DNA of 18,338 nucleotides from a candidate division WOR-3 bacterium (GTDB lineage: Bacteria; Hydrothermota; Tepidihabitantia; Tepidihabitantales; CAIPLT01): the NCBI GenBank assembly GCA_965649215.1, contig CBFGJZ010000003.1:79504-97841 (forward strand). The letters run 5' to 3'. Made by a program: the position numbers and the translations under genes. Shown here piece by piece: positions 1 to 13,712 of the stretch. A model generated the notes under the pieces. The model saw only the letters and a program-made list of their open reading frames with translations, had not been told where the DNA came from and made no database searches. Position 1 is the first letter of the stretch. Each line of letters opens with the position of its first letter.

Positions 1-619
1 TCTCCACATCTTGCATAAACCATTGTCGAGCTGTATCACCCTGCTTTGTCTTCTGCAAGGACTCACCAAGCGCATCGCTTTCAATACTTGCCAACCAATA
101 GGCATAGGGATTTTGTTTAATCGTATTCGGATTCGCTAATACTTCATTATTTAGTTGACTAATACGACCTTTGATATATAAAGGGATCTTTATTGTATTG
201 CCATTCTGCTTAACTCTCAGTTCGTTTATCACCTCATGATCCGTAACAATTTCAATAGTTTTAATCTTATTTAATATCTTGCACGCAAAATCATCAAACC
301 CAATTTTAACTTGACGATTATGCTCCACACTCAACCAGATATGATTTGGTAAATAAAATAAAGCCGCCAGAAAACTAAAACCCCGAATCGTCTCTTGTTG
401 CTCCTTATCACAGGAGAATTCAAAGGAAACATCTTTTGATTTTTCTTTGTGATTAAATATCGCCACTTCTTGATAAATCGCACAAGATTGGGGACAACCA
501 ATACAGGGCTCTTCTCTATATAACGCATTGGTCGGCAACATCTTCTTAATTGGATAAGCATTACAATACCGAACCACAACTTCTTCTAAAAAGGGACATT
601 TATTCTTTTTCATAGTCAT
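1..619 (-). CDS. Cys-rich N-terminal domain + glycine cleavage H (GcvH)-like domain protein, 3' truncated by window edge
   Basis: Not in ORF track. Manual translation from ATG 619 (alt. ATG 613) is open to position 1: MTMKKNKCPFLEEVVVRYCNAYPIKKMLPTNALYREEPCIGCPQSCAIY...RGFSFLAALFYLPNHIWLSVEHNRQVKIGFDDFACKILNKI...KGRISQLNNEVLANPNTIKQNPYAYWLASIES...ARQWFMQDVE. The motifs H-x-W, IGFDDFA, G-x-I-xx-N-xx-L-xx-P and NPY-xx-WL match the GcvH fold. Confidence 0.85.
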   Translation of the reverse strand, partial: MTMKKNKCPFLEEVVVRYCNAYPIKKMLPTNALYREEPCIGCPQSCAIYQEVAIFNHKEKSKDVSFEFSCDKEQQETIRGFSFLAALFYLPNHIWLSVEHNRQVKIGFDDFACKILNKIKTIEIVTDHEVINELRVKQNGNTIKIPLYIKGRISQLNNEVLANPNTIKQNPYAYWLASIESDALGESLQKTKQGDTARQWFMQDVE

Positions 620-630
620 ATTATATAATA

Positions 631-646
631 TGCAAATTCTATGCCA
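631..646 (-). promoter_or_regulatory. sigma54 (-24/-12) promoter of the GcvH-like gene
   Basis: Minus strand reads TGGCATAGAATTTGCA, matching TGGCAC-N5-TTGCW with exact GG-N10-GC spacing. It lies directly downstream of a sigma54 activator gene. Confidence 0.85.
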
Positions 647-676
647 TAATTAAATTTTATATTATAAGTTCTTTAA

Positions 677-689
677 TAACAATAAGTTA
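677..689. promoter_or_regulatory. Putative IHF site between sigma54 promoter and enhancer region
   Basis: TAACAATAAGTTA matches WATCAR-N4-TTR with one mismatch, in an AT-rich tract about 60-70 bp upstream of the predicted +1. Confidence 0.4.
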
Positions 690-723
690 AATTAAAATAC
701 TGATAACAAAATCTTTTATGGGA

Positions 724-800
724 GTGTTGCAAAATATTACTAAAGGTGTTTAATTTTGTAATTATGGTAGCTAATTTATAATAAAAGTGTATAATTGTTA
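724..800. promoter_or_regulatory. Putative upstream activator (enhancer) sites
   Basis: GTGT/GTAG-headed AT-rich units at 724, 746, 767 and 787 (20-22 bp period), e.g. TGTTGCAAAATATTACT at 725-741, about 105-180 bp upstream of the sigma54 +1. Confidence 0.3.
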
Positions 801-839
801 AGCAATGGAAAGATTGATTGTTTAATGCTTTATGTTGGG

Positions 840-2207
840 TTAGAACTTAAGTTCGTCAAGGTTGATGTTATACTCTTTAATTTTACGATACAAAGTAACT
901 CGATTAATACCTAAAATTTGTGCTGCTTTGCTGATATTGCATTTTGTGCTTAATAATACACTGATAATATGTTCTCTTTCAATCTCTTGTAAAGATTTCT
1001 CTATTTCTTTGGTAGGTTTACTTTCACTTTTTGTAGCATAACAAAAATTGGGCAAAGCTTTTGGTGATATGATAGGCCCTTCGTTTACTATTACCGCGTG
1101 TTCAATTGCGTTTTCTAATTCTCGCACATTGCCGGGCCAATCATATTCCATCAGTATTTGCAAGGCACTTTCTGATATCTTTTCAATATTTTTGCCAGTT
1201 TCGATGCGATATTTGTTAATGAAATGGTTGACCAATAATGGGATATCTTCTTTACGTTCTCTTAAAGGTGGGACGGTTATTGTAAAAACATTTAAACGGT
1301 AGTATAAATCGTCTCGAAACCTACCCTCATTGACCAATTTCTTTAAATCTTGATTTGTTGCCGCAATTATCCGTACATCTACTTTTATCTCTTCAGTGCC
1401 ACCTAACCTTCGAAATGTTCTTTCTTGAAGAAACCGCAATAAATCAACCTGTGTTTTCGCATCAATGTCTCCAATTTCATCTAAAAATAGAGTGCCGTTG
1501 TCGGCAAGTTCAATTTTCCCTTTTTTCTGGCTGACCGCACCAGTAAACGCACCTTTTTCATAACCAAACAGTTCTGCTTCTAATAATGATTGTGGCAATG
1601 CACCACAAGCTAATGCAATGAATGGTCCTTCGGGTCTTAGACTGTTTTCATGAATTGCCCTTGCTACCAATTCTTTACCGGTCCCTGATTCGCCTTCAAT
1701 TAAAACTGTTGATTTAGTCGGCGCCACGGTTCTAATCAATTCAAAGATCGCTTGCATTTTGGAACTTTTACCTATAATATCTTGCATCTGATAGCGGTGC
1801 GACAGTTCTTTTTTAAGTAAGATATTCTCTTTTACTAAATTTTGGTGTTCAATAATCTTTTTAATGATACTACCTAATTCTTCGGGGTGAAACGGTTTCA
1901 CAATATAATCATAAGCACCTTGTTTAATTGCCGCAACCGCGGTATCCACAGTTGCATAAGCAGTAACAATAATCACAGGTATGTCAAGTTTCATCTCTTT
2001 GACCCGTTTGAGAACTTCTAACCCATCCATTTTCGGCATTTTTAAATCCAAAAGCATCACATTGTATTTCTCTTTTTGTACTGCTTCTAATGCTTTAAAA
2101 CCATCTTCAACTGCATCAACCGAATAACCATCCTCTTTAAGCCAGTCGGTTAACGACTCACGCATGATTTCTTCATCATCAACTATTAATATTCTGCCCG
2201 TTTCCAT
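840..2207 (-). CDS. Sigma54-dependent response regulator, NtrC/AtoC family (REC-AAA+-Fis HTH)
   Basis: ILIVDDEE and LLDLKMP (phospho-Asp); Walker A GESGTGKE; GAFTGA loop; Walker B LFLDEI; WPGNVREL; HTH AAQILGINRVTLYRK. Confidence 0.97.
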   Translation of the reverse strand: METGRILIVDDEEIMRESLTDWLKEDGYSVDAVEDGFKALEAVQKEKYNVMLLDLKMPKMDGLEVLKRVKEMKLDIPVIIVTAYATVDTAVAAIKQGAYDYIVKPFHPEELGSIIKKIIEHQNLVKENILLKKELSHRYQMQDIIGKSSKMQAIFELIRTVAPTKSTVLIEGESGTGKELVARAIHENSLRPEGPFIALACGALPQSLLEAELFGYEKGAFTGAVSQKKGKIELADNGTLFLDEIGDIDAKTQVDLLRFLQERTFRRLGGTEEIKVDVRIIAATNQDLKKLVNEGRFRDDLYYRLNVFTITVPPLRERKEDIPLLVNHFINKYRIETGKNIEKISESALQILMEYDWPGNVRELENAIEHAVIVNEGPIISPKALPNFCYATKSESKPTKEIEKSLQEIEREHIISVLLSTKCNISKAAQILGINRVTLYRKIKEYNINLDELKF

Positions 2208-2222
2208 AAATTGTTCCCCTAC

Positions 2223-2250
2223 ATTATAACAAACTAAATTAGCTCGTCAA
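2223..2250 (-). promoter_or_regulatory. sigma70-type promoter of the response regulator gene
   Basis: TTGACG (2250-2245), 16 bp spacer, TATAAT (2228-2223) with an extended -10 TGn. Confidence 0.7.
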
Positions 2251-2267
2251 CAAAAATAGTTGCAAAT

Positions 2268-2816
2268 TTAATCATTTAAGTCTTTACAATTTTGTATTAA
2301 TACGGATAAGCAACTACTACAAAAATTAAGTTCTTTTCTATCAATACCCGTAATGTTTGCTGAAAAATGCATCACACATTCCTTTTCATCGCAATGTAAC
2401 AAGCCAAAAGTGTGTCCTAACTCATGAATTGCTTCTTTGCTGGCACGTTCTAATAAAATCTGTTGATTGGCTAATAAACTATAAAACTCTTGTCGCAATC
2501 GCTTTATTGAGATTACTGCTGCGCAACCATTTAATTGAGCTTCGCCAAACACAAAAGTTAAAACTGGCGTTGCCAAATCAACATCAGTTACGCCCAAAAT
2601 TTTTAATCCATCATTGGGAATTAGTTTTGTTAACTGCTCTAATATACGAGACGAAAAATATTGTTCCCTACGATGTTCATAAGCATATTCTGGATTTGGT
2701 ATCGGAGTTAAAAGACATGTATCTAAATTAAAGGCTAACTTAACTTTCTGCTCAATTTCTTTTAATATGATCTGTTCAATCTCACCCATTGGCAATAAAT
2801 AGATAATTCGTTTCAT
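2268..2816 (-). CDS. Archaemetzincin family (M54) zinc metalloprotease
   Basis: HELGHTFGLLHCDEKECVM...FCSSC fits HExxHxxGxxHC-x4-C-x-M-x17-CxxC; also R-x-Q-Y and TDVDL...FVFGEA. No signal peptide. Start overlaps the kinase stop (TAATG). Confidence 0.93.
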   Translation of the reverse strand: MKRIIYLLPMGEIEQIILKEIEQKVKLAFNLDTCLLTPIPNPEYAYEHRREQYFSSRILEQLTKLIPNDGLKILGVTDVDLATPVLTFVFGEAQLNGCAAVISIKRLRQEFYSLLANQQILLERASKEAIHELGHTFGLLHCDEKECVMHFSANITGIDRKELNFCSSCLSVLIQNCKDLND

Positions 2817-4744
2817 TAACTGCGGTTTTGAGTAATTGGTAATCGAATTGTAAAAGTCGTTCCCTTACCAACCTCACTGTTTACTTCAATTTCGCCATTA
2901 TGTCTGCTGATAATACCATATACAACTGATAATCCCATACCCGTGCCTTTAGGTTTAGTTGTAAAAAACGGCTCAAATATCTGAGTTAAATGCTCTTTCG
3001 GAATACCAACCCCTGTGTCTTTAAACATGATTTGTAACATATTCCGCTCTTTTAATTCTTCCGTGGTAATCGTTAATTTACCCCCTTGTTCCATGGCTTC
3101 AACCGCGTTAATAATTAAGTTCATAAAAACCTGCTGTAATTGAGAAAAATCAGCCGTAATGCGTGGCAATGTTGCAAAATTAGTCTCAACCGTTATATTT
3201 TGTAATCTAATCTTATGTTCCAAGAGATCTAAAGATTCAGAAATTACTAAATTAACATCTACTAACTTCAAATTCGGGTCGCGTTGTCGGGCAAAGTCCA
3301 ATAAATTCTTAACAATAGTTGAGACCCGTTCGGTTTCATTTTCTACTTTATCTAAATATCTTCGAAAGTCGCCATCGGCATCGCTCCGTTTTTCTAATCG
3401 CTTTTTAATCAAGCGAATATAAGTTAAGACTCCGGTAAGAGGATTGTTGATTTCGTGCGCGACACCCGCCGATAGTTGTCCTAACGTGGCCAATCTTTCT
3501 GAACGCATAATCTGTTGTTGAGTATATTCTTTTAGCTCCGATTCTCGTTCTTTTAAAGATTTAATCATCATATTAAAAGCATTAGCTAATTCTCCAACTT
3601 CATCTGAGGTAGTAACATCAACTTTGACATCAAAATTACCATTTGCAATCTGACGGGAGACCTGCACCATTTTATCCAAAGGTTTTAAGATCGTTCGGCC
3701 TAAAAAATGAGCAATAAAAATTGCTACACCCATTCCCATAATAACAATTGCTAAGAAAATGCTAATCGTGCGCTTGCGCATATCTGCGTATTTTTCTTCT
3801 AAAATTCCGACATATAAAATACCGATCACACCGCCGTTAATATCTCGAATCGGTTCATAGGCGGTAAGATACCAATTATTAACGACAAAAGCACGGTCAT
3901 AATAGGATTCACCTCGGCCTAATACTTGGTCATAAACATTCGCTGCAATACGAGTGCCAATTGCTCGTTCTCCATCTTCTCGACGCACATTTGTGGAAAT
4001 TCGTAAGTCGCCCTGAAAGATCGTTGCGGTACCGATATCTTTGCCTTTATATGATTCATTGCCAAAAACAACCTCTTTAATTTTATCCACCAAGTCGTAA
4101 TTCTTATTTAATAAGCGCCCCCCATAGATAACACCGATAAACTCACCTTCTGCGGAAAAAACAGGTGCGGCTGCTAATATCACCATTCCGATCGATGATT
4201 CGTCACGGGCTTCTGTGGTCTTTGCCATTGGTGTCGGAAAAATCTTAATGGTTGCCTTTTGAACTAGCTTTTCATTACCTTCTTTTAATAAATCAGTCTT
4301 TTCTAAAATACAAGTTGAGACCACAACTTCTTTGTTTTTGAGAGCAACTTTGACAATATCATTATTAACCACATCTCCATAACGATGGGGATTTGCCAAT
4401 CTAAATATCACTTTGCCTTGACTGTCAACAATACTTAAAATATCCAACTTTTCTTTTTCTACAACCCAATCCAGTAATTGTTTTAATGCTTTGCGCTGTT
4501 GCGTACTAATTGCTTGTTTCACTAATAAACGCTCAGCATTTAATCGTAACAGGTCAGCAATATCACTGGCATAATCATTATAAATCTCGCGAGCCGCATT
4601 TATATCACTTTTTACCTTTGACTGGGCTTGATTAACAATTCCATTTGCAATAAAACGAATACCCACCCAAGTGGTAGTCACTCCAATAATCAACACTATT
4701 AACAAAAAAGCTAAAGTGAATTTTGCGGTTAACCGTAAAAACAT
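2816..4744 (-). CDS. Membrane sensor histidine kinase (extracytoplasmic Cache domain(s), HAMP, HisKA, HATPase_c)
   Basis: Two TM helices flank a Cache-type region (GTATIFQGDLRISTNV...GERAIGT). HAMP DEVGELANAFN; H-box AGVAHEINNPL; N-box QVFMNLIINA; DTGVGI; FEPFFTTK; GTGMGL. Confidence 0.96.
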   Translation of the reverse strand: MFLRLTAKFTLAFLLIVLIIGVTTTWVGIRFIANGIVNQAQSKVKSDINAAREIYNDYASDIADLLRLNAERLLVKQAISTQQRKALKQLLDWVVEKEKLDILSIVDSQGKVIFRLANPHRYGDVVNNDIVKVALKNKEVVVSTCILEKTDLLKEGNEKLVQKATIKIFPTPMAKTTEARDESSIGMVILAAAPVFSAEGEFIGVIYGGRLLNKNYDLVDKIKEVVFGNESYKGKDIGTATIFQGDLRISTNVRREDGERAIGTRIAANVYDQVLGRGESYYDRAFVVNNWYLTAYEPIRDINGGVIGILYVGILEEKYADMRKRTISIFLAIVIMGMGVAIFIAHFLGRTILKPLDKMVQVSRQIANGNFDVKVDVTTSDEVGELANAFNMMIKSLKERESELKEYTQQQIMRSERLATLGQLSAGVAHEINNPLTGVLTYIRLIKKRLEKRSDADGDFRRYLDKVENETERVSTIVKNLLDFARQRDPNLKLVDVNLVISESLDLLEHKIRLQNITVETNFATLPRITADFSQLQQVFMNLIINAVEAMEQGGKLTITTEELKERNMLQIMFKDTGVGIPKEHLTQIFEPFFTTKPKGTGMGLSVVYGIISRHNGEIEVNSEVGKGTTFTIRLPITQNRS

Positions 4745-4771: not shown

Positions 4772-6667
4772 TTACCGCAATAAGAGAAAGAAAAAGATAG
4801 CGATAATTGCAATCACACCCAGAAATAACCACCCTAAGTAAGTCTGTAAAAGACCACTATGAATCTTTTTACCGACTTTTACGATTTGTCCAATTAAATT
4901 TTTCCCTTGTTCAAAAATATCAAACACCTTTTTGTCAGCTACCCGATAAGCATCCGCCACAATTTTCATATCTTTAACTGATTCATAAAAATCAGCTCCG
5001 CTGTAAGAAGCTTCTTGTTGACTGACTGCGGTCTTATCTGGGCTAACCGCTTCACCACCAATAAACACAGCTGATTCTTTCACTCGTTTAGACTTCATCA
5101 TAAAATATATTATCAAACCAATTATAATTGCTGAGATGATTAAAACAACTGCCCATTTTGCATTAACAACCGGATAAAGTTCGGCCGTAAAATCATAATA
5201 TGTTTGAAAACTTAATTTGTTGATTAAAGACAATGGAAATTTAGCATAGACGCCAAATCCGATTGCCAATATTGATAAAACCAGCATCGGTAAAATCGCA
5301 CTCCATGATGGCTCTTTAATTGCAATTGCCGCTGTGTTTTTTGCTCTGGGCGCCAAAAAAACAGCATAGATCATCTTTAAGAAATAAGCCAAAGTCAGCA
5401 CACTGCCAAACATCGCTGCAATAATAAAAATCACAAAATACCACCCTTGAGGAGAACTACCAATATTAATAATTCCCTGATAAATTAACAATTTTGAAAA
5501 AAACCCGTTTAGTGGCGGTACACCTGAAATTGCTAAAGCAGCAATAAATGAAGTAATAAATGTAATTGGCATAAATCGAGCCAAGCCGCCTAATTTCAAA
5601 AAATCTGTCTCTTTACCTTGGGCTTCAACCACACCTGCGGTAAAGAACAATGAACTCTTATAAATCGTATTATTAAACATATGGAAAATTGCACCAATTA
5701 TGCCTAATGGTAAGGCACTGCCGATACCCAAGACCATATAACCAACCTGACTGATTGTGGAATACGCAAGTAGTCGCAAAAGATTTTTTGAAACCAAAGC
5801 CATCGCACTGCCAATAATAACTGTTAAACCACCGATCGACATCAGGACAATGCTCATTGCCGAACCGCTGTATACAGTAAACCAATCAAGGCAAAGCCGA
5901 GTCAGAAGATAAATACCCAATACTTTATCAATAATTCCAGGATATAAAACTAATACTGGTGATGGCGCACTTTCGGATGCATCCACAATCCAAGTATGAA
6001 AAGGTACTGCTCCGCTTTTAGTTAACACCCCTATTAGCAAAAGAATAAAAGCTAAAATAGAAAGTGATGAATTTAAAGACAGACGAATATCACTTAAAGT
6101 TGCTGAACCTGCTAAATAATAAACCAATGCAGCACCGATCAACATTAAAACATCTGATCCACCAATCATGACCAGTGTTTTATAAGCTGCTTGACTTGCC
6201 CCCGGCTTTCCCATCAATATTAAAAGATATAACAAGATTGCAATTGCCCCCCAAAATACTAATAACACCACCAAATTATCAGTTAACAGTACTATGCTGC
6301 TGGCGGTTAATGTCCATTGAAAATAAGCATAAAATTTATTAAATCGTTGTTCGTCAATCACAAAATTAACCAGATTTAAACTAAAAATTGCCACTAATAA
6401 TGTCAAGCTAAAAAGTACCATTAAAACAAGGCTGGCAAAGAACGACACCATAAAACTTAACGAAATATTAAATATTGAAAGAGTTAAGACATAACTGCCA
6501 TTATGGATAACCGCTAAAAAGATTTTTATGCCAATAATAAAAAGGACCAGGGAGATGATTAAATTAAATATGCGTTTAAATCGTTGAGTTTGGGGTGGCA
6601 GAAAAAATAAAATCACACCGCCAAGAAATGAAACTAACACTGGTAAGAAAAAAATTAAGTTATTCAT
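4772..6667 (-). CDS. Antiporter-like membrane subunit (NuoL/MrpA/HyfB/Mbx-H' type)
   Basis: Highly hydrophobic. TKSGAVPFHTW, LLAYSTISQVGY, HMFNNTIYKSSLFF, GVPPLNGFFSK, FIGGE, and a NuoL-like C-terminal amphipathic helix plus TM (KIHSGLLQTY). Confidence 0.9.
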   Translation of the reverse strand: MNNLIFFLPVLVSFLGGVILFFLPPQTQRFKRIFNLIISLVLFIIGIKIFLAVIHNGSYVLTLSIFNISLSFMVSFFASLVLMVLFSLTLLVAIFSLNLVNFVIDEQRFNKFYAYFQWTLTASSIVLLTDNLVVLLVFWGAIAILLYLLILMGKPGASQAAYKTLVMIGGSDVLMLIGAALVYYLAGSATLSDIRLSLNSSLSILAFILLLIGVLTKSGAVPFHTWIVDASESAPSPVLVLYPGIIDKVLGIYLLTRLCLDWFTVYSGSAMSIVLMSIGGLTVIIGSAMALVSKNLLRLLAYSTISQVGYMVLGIGSALPLGIIGAIFHMFNNTIYKSSLFFTAGVVEAQGKETDFLKLGGLARFMPITFITSFIAALAISGVPPLNGFFSKLLIYQGIINIGSSPQGWYFVIFIIAAMFGSVLTLAYFLKMIYAVFLAPRAKNTAAIAIKEPSWSAILPMLVLSILAIGFGVYAKFPLSLINKLSFQTYYDFTAELYPVVNAKWAVVLIISAIIIGLIIYFMMKSKRVKESAVFIGGEAVSPDKTAVSQQEASYSGADFYESVKDMKIVADAYRVADKKVFDIFEQGKNLIGQIVKVGKKIHSGLLQTYLGWLFLGVIAIIAIFFFLLLR

Positions 6668-6681
6668 TTACCCCCCCAATG

Positions 6682-8193
6682 TTACATCCCTACTTTACTA
6701 AAAACTACTTGGGCATATTGAGTACCCAGAAGAACCGCATCACGGGCTAAATCCAGAGTCCTTTCTCGTAAAGGGGGAATTAACAATACCGCCATACCCA
6801 CACAACAGACTGCTAAAATAACCATCGTTGTTGACATAAACTTAGGAACTTCTTTGATTTCAGATAATAAATCAGGTAAATTACCCATAAACACCTTGCG
6901 TTGGACTTTAATAAACGACGCCAAAGTAAGAATTGCGGCTAAACCTGCAATGCCTGCTAAAATATAATGTTGCGCCTGCACTGCGGCAATTATCAGTATT
7001 AACTTTGACCAAAAACCATTAAACGGCGGCACCCCTGAAGCAGCAAAAGAACCAATAAACCAACTGACACTACTGATTGGCATTTTCGCCTGTAAACCAC
7101 CCAGTTTGTTCATATCGCGAGTGCCCGTTGCATACTCAATCGCGCCCGCATTAAAAAACAGAAGCGACTTAAAAGCAGCATGATTCAAGAGATGAAATAA
7201 ACCGCCTAAAACGCCTAATGGCGTACCAATGCCAATTCCCAACAAAACATAACCAATTTGGCTGATACTGCAATAAGCCAATAATCGTTTAATGTCATTT
7301 TGGCCTAATTGCAATATCACCCCGACAATCATTGATAACCCGGCTAACACTAAAATAATGGTTGAAATACGCTTATCCATTCCAATCACATTATAGAAGA
7401 TGCGAATCATTCCGTATGCACCTAATACCTTTATGACAACCCCTGAAAGCATTGATGAAATCGGTGCTGGTGCGGATGGATGAGCATCGGGCAACCAAGC
7501 GTGAAATGGAATCAATGCTGCTTTAAGCGAAAAGCCAACTAATAACAAAATTGAAACCAAAATTATCACTGTGGCATTTGGATTTTGGGCTAATTTTTGG
7601 CTAATATCTGCCATATTCAAGGTACCCGTACCCGCATAGAGCAAAGCAATGCTCAATAAAATGAATAAAGAACCGATGCTTGCTAAAACCATATACTTAA
7701 ATGAAGCTTCCAGTTCTTCGGCTTCTACCCCAAAGCTAACTAAAACATAAGATGCGATTGCGGAAATTTCAATGAACACATACATATTAAACAAATCACC
7801 AGTCATCGCCACTCCGTTCATTCCACCAATCAGCAACATAAGTAAAGCATAAAACTTATACTTAGCGGTAAACTTCTCCATATAATTTATAGAATATAAA
7901 GTCGCCAAAAACCCAACGCTATTGATAATTAACAACATAAATGCCGAGAGCCCGTCAATTACCAATGTGATGCCAATTGGCGGACGCCAACCACCCATAA
8001 AATAAAGTAAAGGTGAATTATAGTAAACGCTAGCTAAGGTTAACAGAGAAAAGACTAAACAACTGGCGGTAGCAAGATTTGCCCAGATATCGCTGATTAT
8101 TTTAGCACGCTCTTTCAATAAAGAACCCAACAAATAAATAAAAAAAGCTGACCCTAAAGGAATCGCAATAAATAATGGCAAATATTTTTCCAT
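6682..8193 (-). CDS. Antiporter-like membrane subunit (MrpD/MbhH type)
   Basis: GGWRPPIGITLVIDGLS, TGDLFNMYVFIEI, LEASFKY, KAALIPFHAWLPDAHPSAP, SGVVIKV, GVPPFNGFWSK. Start placed at ATG 8193 behind SD AAGGAG. Confidence 0.92.
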   Translation of the reverse strand: MEKYLPLFIAIPLGSAFFIYLLGSLLKERAKIISDIWANLATASCLVFSLLTLASVYYNSPLLYFMGGWRPPIGITLVIDGLSAFMLLIINSVGFLATLYSINYMEKFTAKYKFYALLMLLIGGMNGVAMTGDLFNMYVFIEISAIASYVLVSFGVEAEELEASFKYMVLASIGSLFILLSIALLYAGTGTLNMADISQKLAQNPNATVIILVSILLLVGFSLKAALIPFHAWLPDAHPSAPAPISSMLSGVVIKVLGAYGMIRIFYNVIGMDKRISTIILVLAGLSMIVGVILQLGQNDIKRLLAYCSISQIGYVLLGIGIGTPLGVLGGLFHLLNHAAFKSLLFFNAGAIEYATGTRDMNKLGGLQAKMPISSVSWFIGSFAASGVPPFNGFWSKLILIIAAVQAQHYILAGIAGLAAILTLASFIKVQRKVFMGNLPDLLSEIKEVPKFMSTTMVILAVCCVGMAVLLIPPLRERTLDLARDAVLLGTQYAQVVFSKVGM

Positions 8194-8207
8194 TGACACT
8201 CCTTTAA

Positions 8208-9360: not shown

Positions 9361-10974
9361 ATGAGTAAAAACAAGTGGTATGTAGTATTAGGTCTAATCC
9401 TAATGGTTTCTCTCGCATCGGCATTCGTTCCGATTTCAATGCGAATGCGCGGTCTTAACCCATCGTTAGTTGGTATTGTCGACGACGAATATTCAGATTT
9501 ATTCTATAATCCTGCTTTCATTAATAAGATTGAAGGCACTCGCATTTATTCTAATCTCTCTAATATCCAAGGCGAGGGCGAAGACATGTTCTTTAGTGGT
9601 TATGATTATTATCCAGTTCGATATGCCAATTTACTTGGCGGAATCACGGGCTATAATGACATGAAGCTTGGGGCAATGATTGAATTGAGTGGTGGTAATC
9701 TGGAAGTGCAAGAGAATGGCCATGCCAAGGAAATTGATGGTAATGAAATTCATCTTGATAGTATGAACTATGATTATCAATATAACGAAACTGAGAACTG
9801 GTTGCATCTCTTTTGGGGTAAGTCATTAACTTCTTTAAATGTTGGTGTTTGGTTTGGTCCTCATTGGTTAAATTACGAAGAACGCGAGAACTATCAGGAA
9901 AAGGGATTTTACTATCGTAACGATTCTTTAATCAATTATGATTATGAAGGTTATGAATATTATTATCAAGGAAAGACATTTGCTTATCCATTTATGGTTG
10001 GGGTAATGAAAGGTAGTGAGGAAAATGAATTATCTGCTAATTTTACATTCGGCTTTGACCGCACCGGAACCGGTGGACCAGTTAATGAACTGGAGGGTGA
10101 AATCTTACACAATCTTAATCAAAATCTTTCCGTAATCAATGAAGACTTTCATAAGTGGGAAAGCAAATATGAGCAGGGTGGCTACTTTCTGGCTTTAAAT
10201 GGCCGCAGTAAAAAGCGTTGCGAAACTCATTCGCTGAGCTTTTTGGCAGGTATTTCAATGGTCAACCAACCGATTAAATCAACTTATTTAGATACTACTT
10301 ATGAATACTTTAGCCCAGTAAATGGTCTAAAAGAAATTGAAATCAGCCGTGCTTATAGTTCTGGTGAAGGTCCCATGAAATATTTCACGCTCTCGTTAGG
10401 CGTTGGCGTTGAGAAATATTTTGATGTAATGAATAAGAAAACCCTCTTCGCAATTGGTCTCCTACCCGCTTATAACAATGGCACAACCACAATGAAAATA
10501 AAGCCGACGCAAATTCACAATTATTATTATAACAATTTAGTCGACACGCTTGAATACACGACAGACATAAATGCAATTCAAGAATTAGAAGTCAAGACTA
10601 AGTTTGGTGGTCTCTCATTATCCATACCTTTGGGTTTAGAAACTTATCTTACTGACCGCTTTGTTTTGCGATTAGGTGTTACCCATGATCTGACTTTGAT
10701 ATTTAAGAATACTTTTGAATCTAATTTTGCCGATTATGGTGATAGTATCACCTACCATCAAACTCTACCCAATGACACCACAATTATTACTCGTCTCACT
10801 GATGACTCTCACGAATACTATAAAAATGAAATCAAAAGCAAGCTTTCTAATTCTACTCAATATTATTATGGCGCGGGCTATAAAATTAATGATAATATTG
10901 AACTGAATTTCACAAACTTCGCCGACCTCACCAATTTACGGACTTGGTTACTCGGTGTCAATATTAAATGGTAA
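9361..10974 (+). CDS. Outer-membrane beta-barrel protein, probably FadL/OmpP1-like
   Basis: Sec signal peptide (MSKNKWYVVLGLILMVSLASA). N-terminal ...DLFYNPAF resembles the FadL-type hatch motif. Aromatic/Gly-rich alternating strands; C-terminal beta-signal LLGVNIKW. Confidence 0.75.
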   Translation: MSKNKWYVVLGLILMVSLASAFVPISMRMRGLNPSLVGIVDDEYSDLFYNPAFINKIEGTRIYSNLSNIQGEGEDMFFSGYDYYPVRYANLLGGITGYNDMKLGAMIELSGGNLEVQENGHAKEIDGNEIHLDSMNYDYQYNETENWLHLFWGKSLTSLNVGVWFGPHWLNYEERENYQEKGFYYRNDSLINYDYEGYEYYYQGKTFAYPFMVGVMKGSEENELSANFTFGFDRTGTGGPVNELEGEILHNLNQNLSVINEDFHKWESKYEQGGYFLALNGRSKKRCETHSLSFLAGISMVNQPIKSTYLDTTYEYFSPVNGLKEIEISRAYSSGEGPMKYFTLSLGVGVEKYFDVMNKKTLFAIGLLPAYNNGTTTMKIKPTQIHNYYYNNLVDTLEYTTDINAIQELEVKTKFGGLSLSIPLGLETYLTDRFVLRLGVTHDLTLIFKNTFESNFADYGDSITYHQTLPNDTTIITRLTDDSHEYYKNEIKSKLSNSTQYYYGAGYKINDNIELNFTNFADLTNLRTWLLGVNIKW

Positions 10975-11197: not shown

Positions 11198-12766
11198 TTA
11201 ATATAATATAATCTTGGCTGTCTCGGTTCTGTAATCTTCAACATTAATTTTTACAAAATAGACGCCTGCTGGTTGTGATGCCTTGACAATATCAATATGA
11301 TTAGTTTCATATTGGGCAATTCTTTGCGGTATAGTTCTTACTAACTTACCATGCAGGTCATAAACTTCGGCTTGATACTTTTTGCCAATGGGTATCTGTA
11401 GTTTAATTCGCACTCGGTCTTTTAATTGGACAACTGATAAATTTGTTTTTAGCATTTGCTGATTGGTCTCTTCAATTGCACTGGCCGCACCCTTAAATGC
11501 ATAAAGTTGATAGGGTTGGCTGTTTTGGTCTTGTAAAGAAACCAACACATCCACTACCCCATCATTGTCAAAGTCAGCGCCACAGGCAACATCATAAACC
11601 CGATCCACAAAAGTATATTGCCAAAGAACTTCACCATTTGCTCCATTCATGACTTTAACATTACGACCATTAACAGCACCGCCAATAACTTCGGGAATAT
11701 TATCGCCGGTAATATCCGGTAAAGTATCAACATTCCAACAATCAGAACCGACGGTTTGTGACCATAAGACCGCGCCAGTTCGGCCTGATAACACTGAAAC
11801 TAACGGCGACCACGAACCAACCACAACATCATCACAGCCATCATTATTAATATCTCGAATCCGACGGATATCATAGATAACCCGTGCTGAACCTAAGTTG
11901 TTTTGCCATATTAAGCTACCATTAGAACCTTCTAAACAATAAACAGTATATGCCCAACCACCACCAACGACATCGGGGATGCCATTATTATTAGCATCAT
12001 CGCCTTGAATTACATATTCAACTGACCCACCGGTCAGATATGACCAAATTTGACTTCCTGTCTGCCCATTCAAACAATAGATCCGATTATCAACCCCATT
12101 ACCGCCGGAAGCCACCAAAACTTCAGGAATCGTGTCGTTATTTAAATCAATGTGCGGACAAATACACATTACCGCATCATTCGGTCGAAAAGTCCATAGC
12201 AATGCACCGGTGTGGCCATTAAAACATTCAGCGCGTCCACGTTGGTCATTGGTCACACCACCAACACCTGCCAATACTTCAGGAAAGCCATCGCGATTAA
12301 TATCAATTGTCGGTCGCACGCTATAGACCCAACCACCATCAGGATAATATGAATAACTCCAAATCGTGGCACTGCTAACTCCATTAATTGCAAAGACAGT
12401 ACGCCCTGGGAACACACCACCTGGTGTACCCATAATAATATCTGGAATTGAATCACCTGAAATATCGGCAATCGTTGATAAACCGCGGTTACCCCAAATC
12501 CCCTGACAATCCGAACGAGTCCATATTGCATTACCATTTGCGCCCGAAACTAAAAATAAGCGAATTGGCGGCGATGGATAAGCACCATAATAAGCTGCAG
12601 CTACCACATCAGCAATGCCATCATTATTATAGTCATAAGTTGGAAAGGCGGCATAAATACCACCTGTGCCTTGCCGAGCCCAAATAATCTGTCCTTGACT
12701 TTGGGCAAAAACAACCGCACCACAGATACAAACTGACAATAACGCAATTATACTTCTATTTTTCAT
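11198..12766 (-). CDS. Secreted FG-GAP/PQQ-like repeat beta-propeller protein with T9SS-type C-terminal domain
   Basis: Start ATG 12766 behind GGAGG; signal peptide. Eight D-x-[N/S/T/D]-x-D-G-like repeats interleaved with G-x-[N/T]-G-xx-[I/L]-W. CTD with VYDLHGKLV...PAGVYFV...KII. Confidence 0.85.
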   Translation of the reverse strand: MKNRSIIALLSVCICGAVVFAQSQGQIIWARQGTGGIYAAFPTYDYNNDGIADVVAAAYYGAYPSPPIRLFLVSGANGNAIWTRSDCQGIWGNRGLSTIADISGDSIPDIIMGTPGGVFPGRTVFAINGVSSATIWSYSYYPDGGWVYSVRPTIDINRDGFPEVLAGVGGVTNDQRGRAECFNGHTGALLWTFRPNDAVMCICPHIDLNNDTIPEVLVASGGNGVDNRIYCLNGQTGSQIWSYLTGGSVEYVIQGDDANNNGIPDVVGGGWAYTVYCLEGSNGSLIWQNNLGSARVIYDIRRIRDINNDGCDDVVVGSWSPLVSVLSGRTGAVLWSQTVGSDCWNVDTLPDITGDNIPEVIGGAVNGRNVKVMNGANGEVLWQYTFVDRVYDVACGADFDNDGVVDVLVSLQDQNSQPYQLYAFKGAASAIEETNQQMLKTNLSVVQLKDRVRIKLQIPIGKKYQAEVYDLHGKLVRTIPQRIAQYETNHIDIVKASQPAGVYFVKINVEDYRTETAKIILY

Positions 12767-12799
12767 AAAAACCTCCAAAATTAATAAATTATCCAAATC

Positions 12800-13678
12800 T
12801 TATTTTAAAAACAATGTTTTTTTAATTTGCTTTTGCCCATCTTGGGTTTGCAGGGTAATAAAATAAATGCCCGGTGAAACCAATTCACCTTTTTCATTAT
12901 CGCCTGCCCAAATAACTGTGTAATGGTCTGCATTTTTGTGAACCGCTGTGATTGTTTTTACTAACTTTCCCGTCGCATCATATATTTTAACTGCTTGAAA
13001 TTTGCCTAAATCAATAGAAAATTTAATCTGAGTCTGATTAAAAAACGGATTCGGTTTAATTTCAAACCGTAACTGATTTCTTGTTATTTCATCTTCCTGT
13101 TCTTCAATAGCGCTGGCATTAAGAAACGAAACGCTGTCAATAAAAATCGTCCCACCCGATGGTGTATTGGCATTAAGACCGTAGGTACGAATAATAAAAT
13201 CCGCATATACCGCATTGAGTGGTGCAGTATCCGATAAAGCGGCTCTGCGCACAACCCGCCATGTTGGAGATGGAATCGTCTCCGTATATTCAGTTGACCA
13301 GGAACTAATAAAACCAGCTGAAGCATTTCGCCAAGTTATGGTAAGACCGCCTTTAACACTATCACTTGTTAAATAATAACGCATACTGGCTACATAACGA
13401 CCACGGCCAGGGATTGTGACACGCTGTAAAATTCCTTTATTGTTACCGGTACCGACTTGGAAACGTTGCATCTTAACCGCATAACTGCCATGAAAAACAC
13501 GCATGCTATCTTTATAGATTTTAGTATAAATAGTATCTTCAACAGTCCAATCCGTAGGTGTCCGTGGATTACCCCAACTTTCAAAACTGGGATTTAATAA
13601 CAAATTTGCTTGGAGCGGTAAGATAACTGCACTCAGCAAACTCAATAGCATAATTTTAATTAAATTTTTTCTTATCAT
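12800..13678 (-). CDS. Secreted protein: CBM4/9-like jelly-roll domain + FlgD-Ig/T9SS-type C-terminal domain
   Basis: Start ATG 13678 behind GGGGG; signal peptide. Domain boundaries NLLLNPSFESW ... IFIDSVSF. CTD with PNPF, IYDATGKLVKT, WAGDNEKGELVSPGIYF. Confidence 0.8.
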   Translation of the reverse strand: MIRKNLIKIMLLSLLSAVILPLQANLLLNPSFESWGNPRTPTDWTVEDTIYTKIYKDSMRVFHGSYAVKMQRFQVGTGNNKGILQRVTIPGRGRYVASMRYYLTSDSVKGGLTITWRNASAGFISSWSTEYTETIPSPTWRVVRRAALSDTAPLNAVYADFIIRTYGLNANTPSGGTIFIDSVSFLNASAIEEQEDEITRNQLRFEIKPNPFFNQTQIKFSIDLGKFQAVKIYDATGKLVKTITAVHKNADHYTVIWAGDNEKGELVSPGIYFITLQTQDGQKQIKKTLFLK

Positions 13679-13712
13679 TATTTCCCCCACCAAAAAATAT
13701 TTCTATTATGAT

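Follow-up and report, generated by a model that had tools for sequence, protein, structure and literature searches.

The stretch of 18,338 nucleotides analysed here (the window; G000:C3:79504-97841) comes from the 1.64-Mb, 95% complete genome of a candidate division WOR-3 bacterium and encodes a signalling module in which a sensor histidine kinase and an NtrC-type sigma-54 activator are accompanied by an archaemetzincin (AMZ) and followed by a -24/-12 promoter in front of the gene for a lipoate-less H-protein look-alike, termed here GcvL. Similar gene sets surround related AMZs in about ten phyla, and the module appears to be a widespread, apparently unpublished variant of sigma-54 two-component signalling. 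In our preferred interpretation, to which we give slightly less than an even chance, the kinase would sense formate, the activator would induce GcvL together with an extra antiporter subunit for a [NiFe]-hydrogenase, and the AMZ would act on GcvL as a feedback or reset. New in the window copy are the formate-type residues of the sensor, an induced unit composed of GcvL and one antiporter-like subunit, and a candidate palindromic enhancer.

Organization of the locus and its promoter

The kinase, the AMZ and the activator follow one another on the minus strand with the expected domains (Table 1), as the original prediction had described, and the start of the AMZ gene shares 1 nt with the stop of the kinase gene. 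The activator combines a receiver with Asp54, an AAA+ domain with the GAFTGA loop, and a Fis-type helix-turn-helix (HTH) domain with the sequence INRVTL, i.e. the full set of NtrC-type features. At the sequence level the genome also provides the other partners of such a protein, namely rpoN (model score 383, cut-off 277) and a target promoter of the -24/-12 type.

The prediction that this promoter precedes the gene of a non-canonical H-protein was likewise upheld: the box matches TGGCAY-N5-TTGCW exactly, and the product encoded downstream matches GCV_H with 33.4 bits (cut-off 22.2). Two exact sigma-54 matches occur in the window against 0.07 expected; the second, at 3944-3959, sits in the kinase coding sequence and was rejected as a promoter. 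The whole genome contains 21 exact boxes (2-11 in ten Markov simulations), of which 7 are located outside long open reading frames (ORFs). By eye, the box before GcvL is kept in 7/7 WOR-3 relatives with upstream DNA, and it is found in 15/69 others compared with 57/3450 random windows. A sigma-70 scan returned 4 sites versus 3.2 expected. At the usual promoter spacing, transcription would start near 620, right beside the ATG at 619, leaving the GcvL message with little or no leader; the ATGs of the five same-order relatives are likewise placed 2-6 nt past the start predicted for them (by eye). The six further exact boxes outside long ORFs are at G000:C3:50613, C7:14766, C10:48545, C16:15003, C17:36291 and C26:15650, and the sole other sigma-54 activator of the genome is encoded at C3:54348-55850.

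In promoters of the family, a palindrome of 17 bp (TGTTGC-N5-GCAACA) is found repeatedly at 80-190 nt upstream, often in pairs 19-23 nt apart, and the recognition helix IDRVTL is common to 45 of the 72 readable activators. The enhancer consensus derives from visual inspection of the WOR-3 promoters and was tested by consensus counts, so that the p-values for those promoters are circular; a palindromic enhancer shared across promoters is suggested rather than established by these patterns. Sites resembling the binding sequence of the integration host factor (IHF), with 0-1 mismatch to what we take to be its consensus, are found at similar places in relatives; this comparison had no chance control.

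The GcvL ORF runs over the left edge of the window into a scaffold gap of 97 N. A contig of a close relative reads through this point, with just 7 letters in place of the 106 of the scaffold, hence nothing is hidden there and GcvL comprises 255 codons, as does its homologue from the same genus; an operon concealed in the gap is thereby ruled out. The canonical gcvH of this genome (L022:1142-1758, G000:C1) is also broken by a 97-N gap whose flanks are duplicated, an artefact of assembly of the same kind.

Table 1. Features of the module and its surroundings (positions in the window unless a contig is given)
Feature	Position	Strand	Remarks
Sensor histidine kinase	2816..4744	-	642 aa; dCache_3/sCache_3_3, HAMP, HisKA, HATPase_c
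Archaemetzincin (AMZ), signalling-linked branch	2268..2816	-	182 aa
NtrC-type sigma-54 activator	840..2207	-	455 aa; receiver, Sigma54_activat, HTH_8
Candidate 17-bp enhancer pair	725-741 + 747-763		95 + 117 nt upstream of the -24/-12 box
Candidate IHF site	677..689		one mismatch to the presumed consensus
Sigma-54 -24/-12 box	631..646	-	exact TGGCAY-N5-TTGCW
GcvL (GcvH-like)	1..619, ends at G000:C3:79256	-	255 aa; tail left of the window
Antiporter-like gene after GcvL	C3:77354-79255		633 aa; NuoL/MrpA-like
NuoL/MrpA-like antiporter subunit	4772..6667	-	631 aa
MrpD-like antiporter subunit	6682..8199	-	505 aa

Phylogenetic distribution of the module

We scanned 151 WOR-3 genomes for AMZ and read the 30 best loci, a sample not picked by the module motif; the kinase-AMZ-activator set is present in 7 of them. 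A wider scan, queried with those WOR-3 AMZs, yielded 280 confirmed loci, the best 80 of which, from about ten phyla (39 from Acidobacteriota), were analysed; the query biases this set to the module branch, and the neighbouring genes were outside the query. Among these best 80 loci, 70 have a kinase and an activator within 2.5 kb of the AMZ, 43 contain a GcvH-like match and 53 an NrfD/HmcC-like gene. The 10 loci without the kinase and activator belong to Chloroflexota and Thermoprotei AMZs with the stand-alone motif. The proposal that the locus represents one circuit is supported by this conservation across phyla.

A GcvL with the C-terminal tail described below is encoded in 65/70 module genomes, as opposed to 0/10 stand-alone genomes; in 28 module genomes it was missing from the fetched locus, and 23 of these possess one elsewhere. 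A further sample comprised the 30 best AMZ loci of 121 genomes in the phylum of a Desulfobacteraceae genome, which was itself chosen for having the module. Eight of these loci have an activator within 1.5 kb, two more have GcvL, and all ten AMZs lack Asn at position 87, whereas neither gene accompanies any of the 20 stand-alone-type loci. Conversely, 24 of 30 genomes with tailed GcvL in that phylum (taken from the best 150 matches, with 66 weaker ones left out) have an AMZ within 4 kb, two have it on another contig, and four have none. Two loci with two modules each (L108, L128) carry one AMZ per module. Within the order of the source organism, the window's kinase type is found in 7/66 genomes, 6 of which also have GcvL, and an antiporter-like gene follows GcvL in all seven genomes that possess the latter.

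Elsewhere the output of the modules consists of HmcB/C-like or Hdr-like redox genes, the Hdr-like ones located behind a sigma-54 box and GcvL. Three related Acidobacteriota (L109, L125, L131) possess the kinase, activator, AMZ, an HmcB/C-like pair and a Crp/Fnr gene upstream, with no tailed GcvL in their genomes. In one WOR-3 module (L066:2126-8517, G126) the kinase is a cytoplasmic PAS protein, and aconitase is encoded straight after GcvL on the opposite strand. A full-text literature search, with most subscription journals outside its coverage, retrieved neither a description of this gene set nor any paper joining archaemetzincin with bacterial two-component systems.

The archaemetzincin

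The window AMZ passes the NF033823 model (172.8 bits, cut-off 145), and its closest structures are 2X7M, 4AXQ, 3ZVS and 3LMC. The M54 motif, given in the family description of PMC3427221 as HEXXHXXGXXH followed by four Cys and a Met-turn, is complete (H131, E132, H135, G138, H141, C142, C147, M149, C166, C169), and the zinc-binding and catalytic residues (HExxHxxxxxH and four Cys) are unchanged in 80/80 module AMZs. These sequences form one branch in a quick tree of 80 rows (support of 92 in the Shimodaira-Hasegawa-like approximate likelihood ratio test, SH-aLRT), with a signature beside the cleft: position 87 is Thr or Ser in 78/80 module AMZs and Asn in 32/34 stand-alone ones, and the window protein has Thr87 and Gln94. 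The columns of Phe136 and Asn138 in the S1' wall of AfAmzA are nearly fixed in stand-alone AMZs (Phe 33/34, Asn 34/34) and free in the module branch. This pattern fits an active enzyme with changed specificity.

In 74/80 module rows no more than 200 nt separate the AMZ from the activator, in either gene order. The distances of the AMZs track those of the activators (rho 0.40) and of GcvL (0.31), with 0.07 for activator and GcvL (43 sets, which are not independent). The suggestion that a protease is built into the signalling step fits this gene linkage. The genome encodes a second archaemetzincin (L034:1465-2031, G000:C4:84897-85289) with HTLGR instead of HELGH; it has lost the catalytic Glu and one His and is therefore probably non-proteolytic, which recalls CarG (see below).

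GcvL, an H-protein fold without the lipoyl lysine

GcvL consists of an N-terminal Cys domain, an H-protein fold and a helical tail of ~55 aa with a DGG motif, the tail being covered by no sequence match in the PDB. The position of the lipoyl lysine is occupied by Gly, and among 79 locus proteins only 4 have Lys in this column, one of them a canonical-length GcvH. The score against TIGR00527 is 25, below the cut-off of 116, and for NF045810 (GcvH-related; cut-off 150) two homologues reach 40.4 and 33.8, with no match for the window protein. The predicted structure of a 255-aa homologue from G001 has a mean predicted local distance difference test (pLDDT) score of 85; its H-protein core is predicted well and the N-terminal Cys region less so, and the tail is helical. 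A Foldseek search with this model retrieved only H-proteins at E<0.001 (E 3e-9, target template modelling score 0.7-0.8), which assigns GcvL to the H-protein fold. A separate canonical gcvH is located in the genome between gcvT-like and gcvP-like genes.

The label "Cys-rich" given to this protein earlier holds with a qualification: the 206 residues within the window contain 7 Cys, with residues 1-46 accounting for 5, and most relatives add two Cys-rich repeats. The N-terminal parts of the family vary, comprising Cys repeats, a membrane helix, a receiver or Fe-S domains, e.g. fusions with a receiver (P0069) or with 2Fe-2S/4Fe-4S domains (P0061, P0076, P0090, P0145), and one protein is a tandem double (P0073). 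The tail is more constant, with its D, G and G kept in 90-92% of the 79 locus proteins (unfiltered); the invariance of DGG in our alignment A6 is by construction. A profile search collected 522 representatives at E<1e-30. Scanning loci with the window GcvL as sole query returned no match, the variability of alignment A2 precluded the reading of patterns, and an Atlas search produced no usable match to residues 1-60 and nothing but GCV_H clusters when a whole homologue was used.

The antiporter subunits and the hydrogenase

The original prediction saw a hint of an energy-conserving membrane complex encoded beyond the left edge of the window. The tie to such a complex stands, but the complex as a whole is not there: GcvL is followed by a single gene, for a 633-aa subunit 47% identical to the product of 4772-6667, and then by repeats, and the rest is encoded on another contig. 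These repeats (108-203 nt, L001:15385-16303) lie directly past the induced antiporter gene and have inverted arms around a short ORF that we take to be GIY-YIG fragment-like.

The operon on the other contig, C6 (L220:1624-13236), comprises NuoD-like large, NuoB/C/H/I-like and Mrp-like subunits and has both CxxC pairs (CGIC and CYCC), the features of a Mrp-linked group 4 [NiFe]-hydrogenase. It includes sulfhydrogenase-like diaphorase genes, is headed by AsrA/AsrB-like genes and an Fdh-alpha-like gene without a molybdopterin match, and contains no MrpD. The hydrogenase operon lacks MrpD in three of the six genomes read (G000, G005, G011), and the window supplies an MrpD-like subunit; in the other three (G012, G013, G016) the operon holds its own NuoL-like and MrpD genes. 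A detached fabD-MrpD-NuoL-like unit is present in G000 and G005 (MrpD-NuoL-like in G011), as well as in the module-less G002, G003 and G009. The NuoL-like copies after GcvL and in the detached units form one branch (support 98), apart from the operon-internal copies, and the module genomes G000, G005 and G011 carry four antiporter genes where G002, G003 and G009 carry three. With one more antiporter gene in the module genomes and copies that branch apart, what the promoter adds is probably a further distal subunit, and the induced unit likely serves the Mrp-linked [NiFe]-hydrogenase. The gene at 4772-6667, which ends 27 nt upstream of the kinase gene, is probably co-transcribed with it.

All 16 readable NuoL-like subunits, operon-internal ones included (e.g. 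4772-6667 and L001:16355-18256), have a WG motif, where we take E. coli NuoL to have WE; judging from this substitution, their pumping may be altered or absent. An HdrA-like gene (L221:1357-5072, G000:C21) has neighbours that are presumably HdrB/C- and MvhD-like, and HdrA-like genes are found near the module in G012 and G016.

The sensor

The kinase has His430, HATPase_c and a double-Cache sensor, whose only PDB matches are 8PY0 and 8PY1. According to PMC11804620, they are formate complexes of Cache domains, in which the ligands of formate are Arg, Thr and Tyr, two more Thr are conserved, and a Phe on the pocket floor excludes acetate. The second Cache module of the window kinase carries the ligand residues and both conserved Thr of the formate-binding family (T241, R248, T251, T264, Y296), a set that is invariant in 5/5 aligned WOR-3 kinases at 53-61% identity. 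On these residues we predict that the kinase senses formate.

A Cache sensor is not a constant part of the module. Among 80 partner kinases, 55 have a haem-c-like motif, 6 the formate-type motif of the window, 14 are of other kinds, and 5 are short or missing; other inputs include PAS, GAF, sCache_2 and [FeFe]-hydrogenase-like domains. Since both sensor and output vary across phyla, Cache does not define the module. One kinase (L113:7930-9990) has an [FeFe]-hydrogenase-like sensor domain and Fe-S clusters.

Proposed mechanism and alternatives

In the circuit we propose, formate would bind the Cache sensor of the kinase, a phosphoryl group would pass from His430 to Asp54 of the activator, the activator would sit at 725-763 with IHF looping the DNA, a leaderless message would start at about 620, and the 633-aa subunit, once assembled into the hydrogenase, would serve there as an alternative distal subunit of the pump. 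The protease, made together with the kinase and activator, would cut or hold the DGG tail of the induced GcvL; this is the least sure step, and within the proposed circuit it falls a little further short of an even chance than the circuit itself. A wider generalization is doubtful: that these modules make up a widespread, undescribed signalling class of anaerobes in which sensors are exchangeable (haem, PAS or hydrogenase-like types, and a formate type in the window), sigma-54 induces lipoate-less H-folds that would report on a redox complex, and AMZ cleavage of the DGG tail would close the loop, with the WOR-3 loop retuning an ion-pumping hydrogenase through the exchange of one pump subunit.

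Several observations weigh against the proposed circuit. The enhancer is not significant in the window alone (p 0.33) and reaches p<0.05 in only 7/25 non-WOR-3 promoters, several of them related. A tailed GcvL could not be clearly made out in five of the 70 module genomes, and G016 has kinase, AMZ and activator with no GcvL found, which weakens the case for GcvL as the sole target. In the sensor, the Phe of the pocket floor is replaced with Tyr (Y311, in 5/5 kinases), a conservative change, and the formate motif (212-324) belongs to the second Cache module, the one nearer the membrane, and directly precedes the second membrane helix; according to PMC11804620, formate sites are in distal or single modules, almost only of chemoreceptors. 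Searches of the 95% complete genome for molybdopterin enzymes (including formate dehydrogenase), for pyruvate formate-lyase and for a formate channel found none of them; the genome does encode formate-tetrahydrofolate ligase, so that formate could enter one-carbon metabolism. In the assays described in PMC3427221, AfAmzA and MkAmzA were inactive under standard conditions though their motifs are intact. Finally, the antiporter pair upstream of the kinase, taken earlier as a hint of the output, is kept by three module-less relatives of the same family, and is therefore not by itself evidence of the circuit.

A rather unlikely alternative retains the same circuit and has the protease act on the activator or kinase, by turnover or trimming of the phosphorylated form, with GcvL as an induced accessory of the redox complex. 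It would explain why the AMZ adjoins the activator so regularly, often overlapping its start or stop, and why it persists in genomes where tailed GcvL was not found; moreover, ten AMZ rows of several phyla that group in one sub-branch (support 96) share the kinase-AMZ-activator order and, in 8/8 readable cases, an [IM]DRSTL helix. Against it, in G286 and G179 the AMZ lies beside GcvL and ~7 kb from the activator, and three apparent AMZ-activator fusions (of five long matches) had to be discarded as evidence, being single records with garbled stretches, frameshift signs or a read-through junction.

Distinctly less probable is a signal other than formate, either a ligand of the distal Cache module or a redox state read via the Cys-bearing GcvL, which would leave the formate-type residues as a conserved structural relic. 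The variety of sensors and of outputs (HmcB/C- or Hdr-like elsewhere) and the failure to find classical formate enzymes or a formate channel speak for it; the invariance of the formate markers in the WOR-3 kinases and their recurrence in the second module of an unrelated genome (L128) speak for formate, as assumed in our preferred circuit.

Slightly further down the scale we place the view that the AMZ is a binding adaptor, its cleft holding a partner without cutting. The precedent is CarG of Myxococcus xanthus, presented in PMC3427221 and PMC2919716 as a non-proteolytic archaemetzincin homologue working with the regulator CarD, and the freedom of the S1'-wall residues in the module branch, fixed in stand-alone AMZs, would suit such a role. 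CarG, however, has Gln for the catalytic Glu, which the module AMZs keep along with the three His in 80/80, and the window protein scores 117 against the cut-off of 250 of NF033824, a model for which none of the 81 genomes searched exceeded the cut-off. It is highly improbable that the AMZ is a passenger beside an ordinary two-component system: most AMZ loci in the motif-independent samples are indeed stand-alone (23/30 and 20/30), but these belong to other branches, and the module branch keeps its neighbours through order changes, duplications and about ten phyla.

Other genes of the window

The gene at 9361-10974 on the plus strand encodes 537 aa with a signal-like start and no Pfam match, and gives the impression, no firmer than that, of an outer-membrane barrel. 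On the minus strand, 11198-13693 encodes two proteins with Por_Secre_tail sorting domains, one of which is an FG-GAP beta-propeller.

Significance and comparison with known systems

Very little is known of archaemetzincin biology, as PMC3427221 puts it, and the module gives this orphan protease family a testable context. For this AMZ branch, GcvL and the activator emerge as candidate partners, and its gene context, fixed across about ten phyla, turns the substrate question into a four-protein experiment. The window copy is among the simplest: its GcvL is soluble, and it has neither a haem kinase nor an NrfD-like module. Together with the small molecule predicted as its trigger, this simplicity brings a reporter test within practical reach. 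If the proposed circuit is true, a prokaryotic archaemetzincin would for the first time have a physiological substrate, a kinase would be shown to carry a formate-type Cache domain, and an energy-conserving hydrogenase would be controlled by an extra pump subunit.

The module AMZs share the full zinc motif, the four Cys and the Met-turn with the AmzA archaemetzincins as characterized in PMC3427221 and PMC4681839, from which they differ by their separate branch, Thr for Asn beside the cleft, the variable S1' wall and the linkage to signalling genes. The CarD-CarG pair, as outlined in PMC2919716, likewise couples an archaemetzincin fold with a transcription regulator, but there the fold is catalytically dead and its partner an HMGA-type factor, whereas the module AMZ keeps its Glu and neighbours a sigma-54 activator. 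The formate Cache domains (PacF, 8PY0, 8PY1) have the markers Thr, Arg, Thr(+3), Thr(+16) and Tyr in common with the window domain, which is unlike them in belonging to a histidine kinase rather than a chemoreceptor, in its proximal position and in the Tyr in place of the floor Phe. GcvL has the H-protein fold of the lipoyl carriers GcvH, LbpA and GcvH-L, yet lacks the lipoyl lysine motif and adds N-terminal Cys, membrane, receiver or Fe-S domains and the DGG tail.

The signalling core is of the NtrB/NtrC type (best NCBIfam matches AtoS/AtoC and ZraS/ZraR), with a HisKA kinase, a receiver-AAA-HTH activator and an adjacent -24/-12 promoter, but the window proteins fall below every listed cut-off for the AtoSC, ZraSR, NtrBC and FhlA equivalogs (AtoC 518/714; AtoS 282/646; FlhA/FhlA 331/830). 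To our knowledge, no system of this type has a dedicated AMZ and a tailed H-protein fold. In E. coli, FhlA controls formate hydrogenlyase: it responds to formate, works with sigma-54 and likely with IHF, and acts on genes of a group 4 hydrogenase. The module is proposed to work alike on all four counts, except that it would sense its cue via a membrane kinase, would induce only one subunit, and operates in a genome in which no formate dehydrogenase was found.

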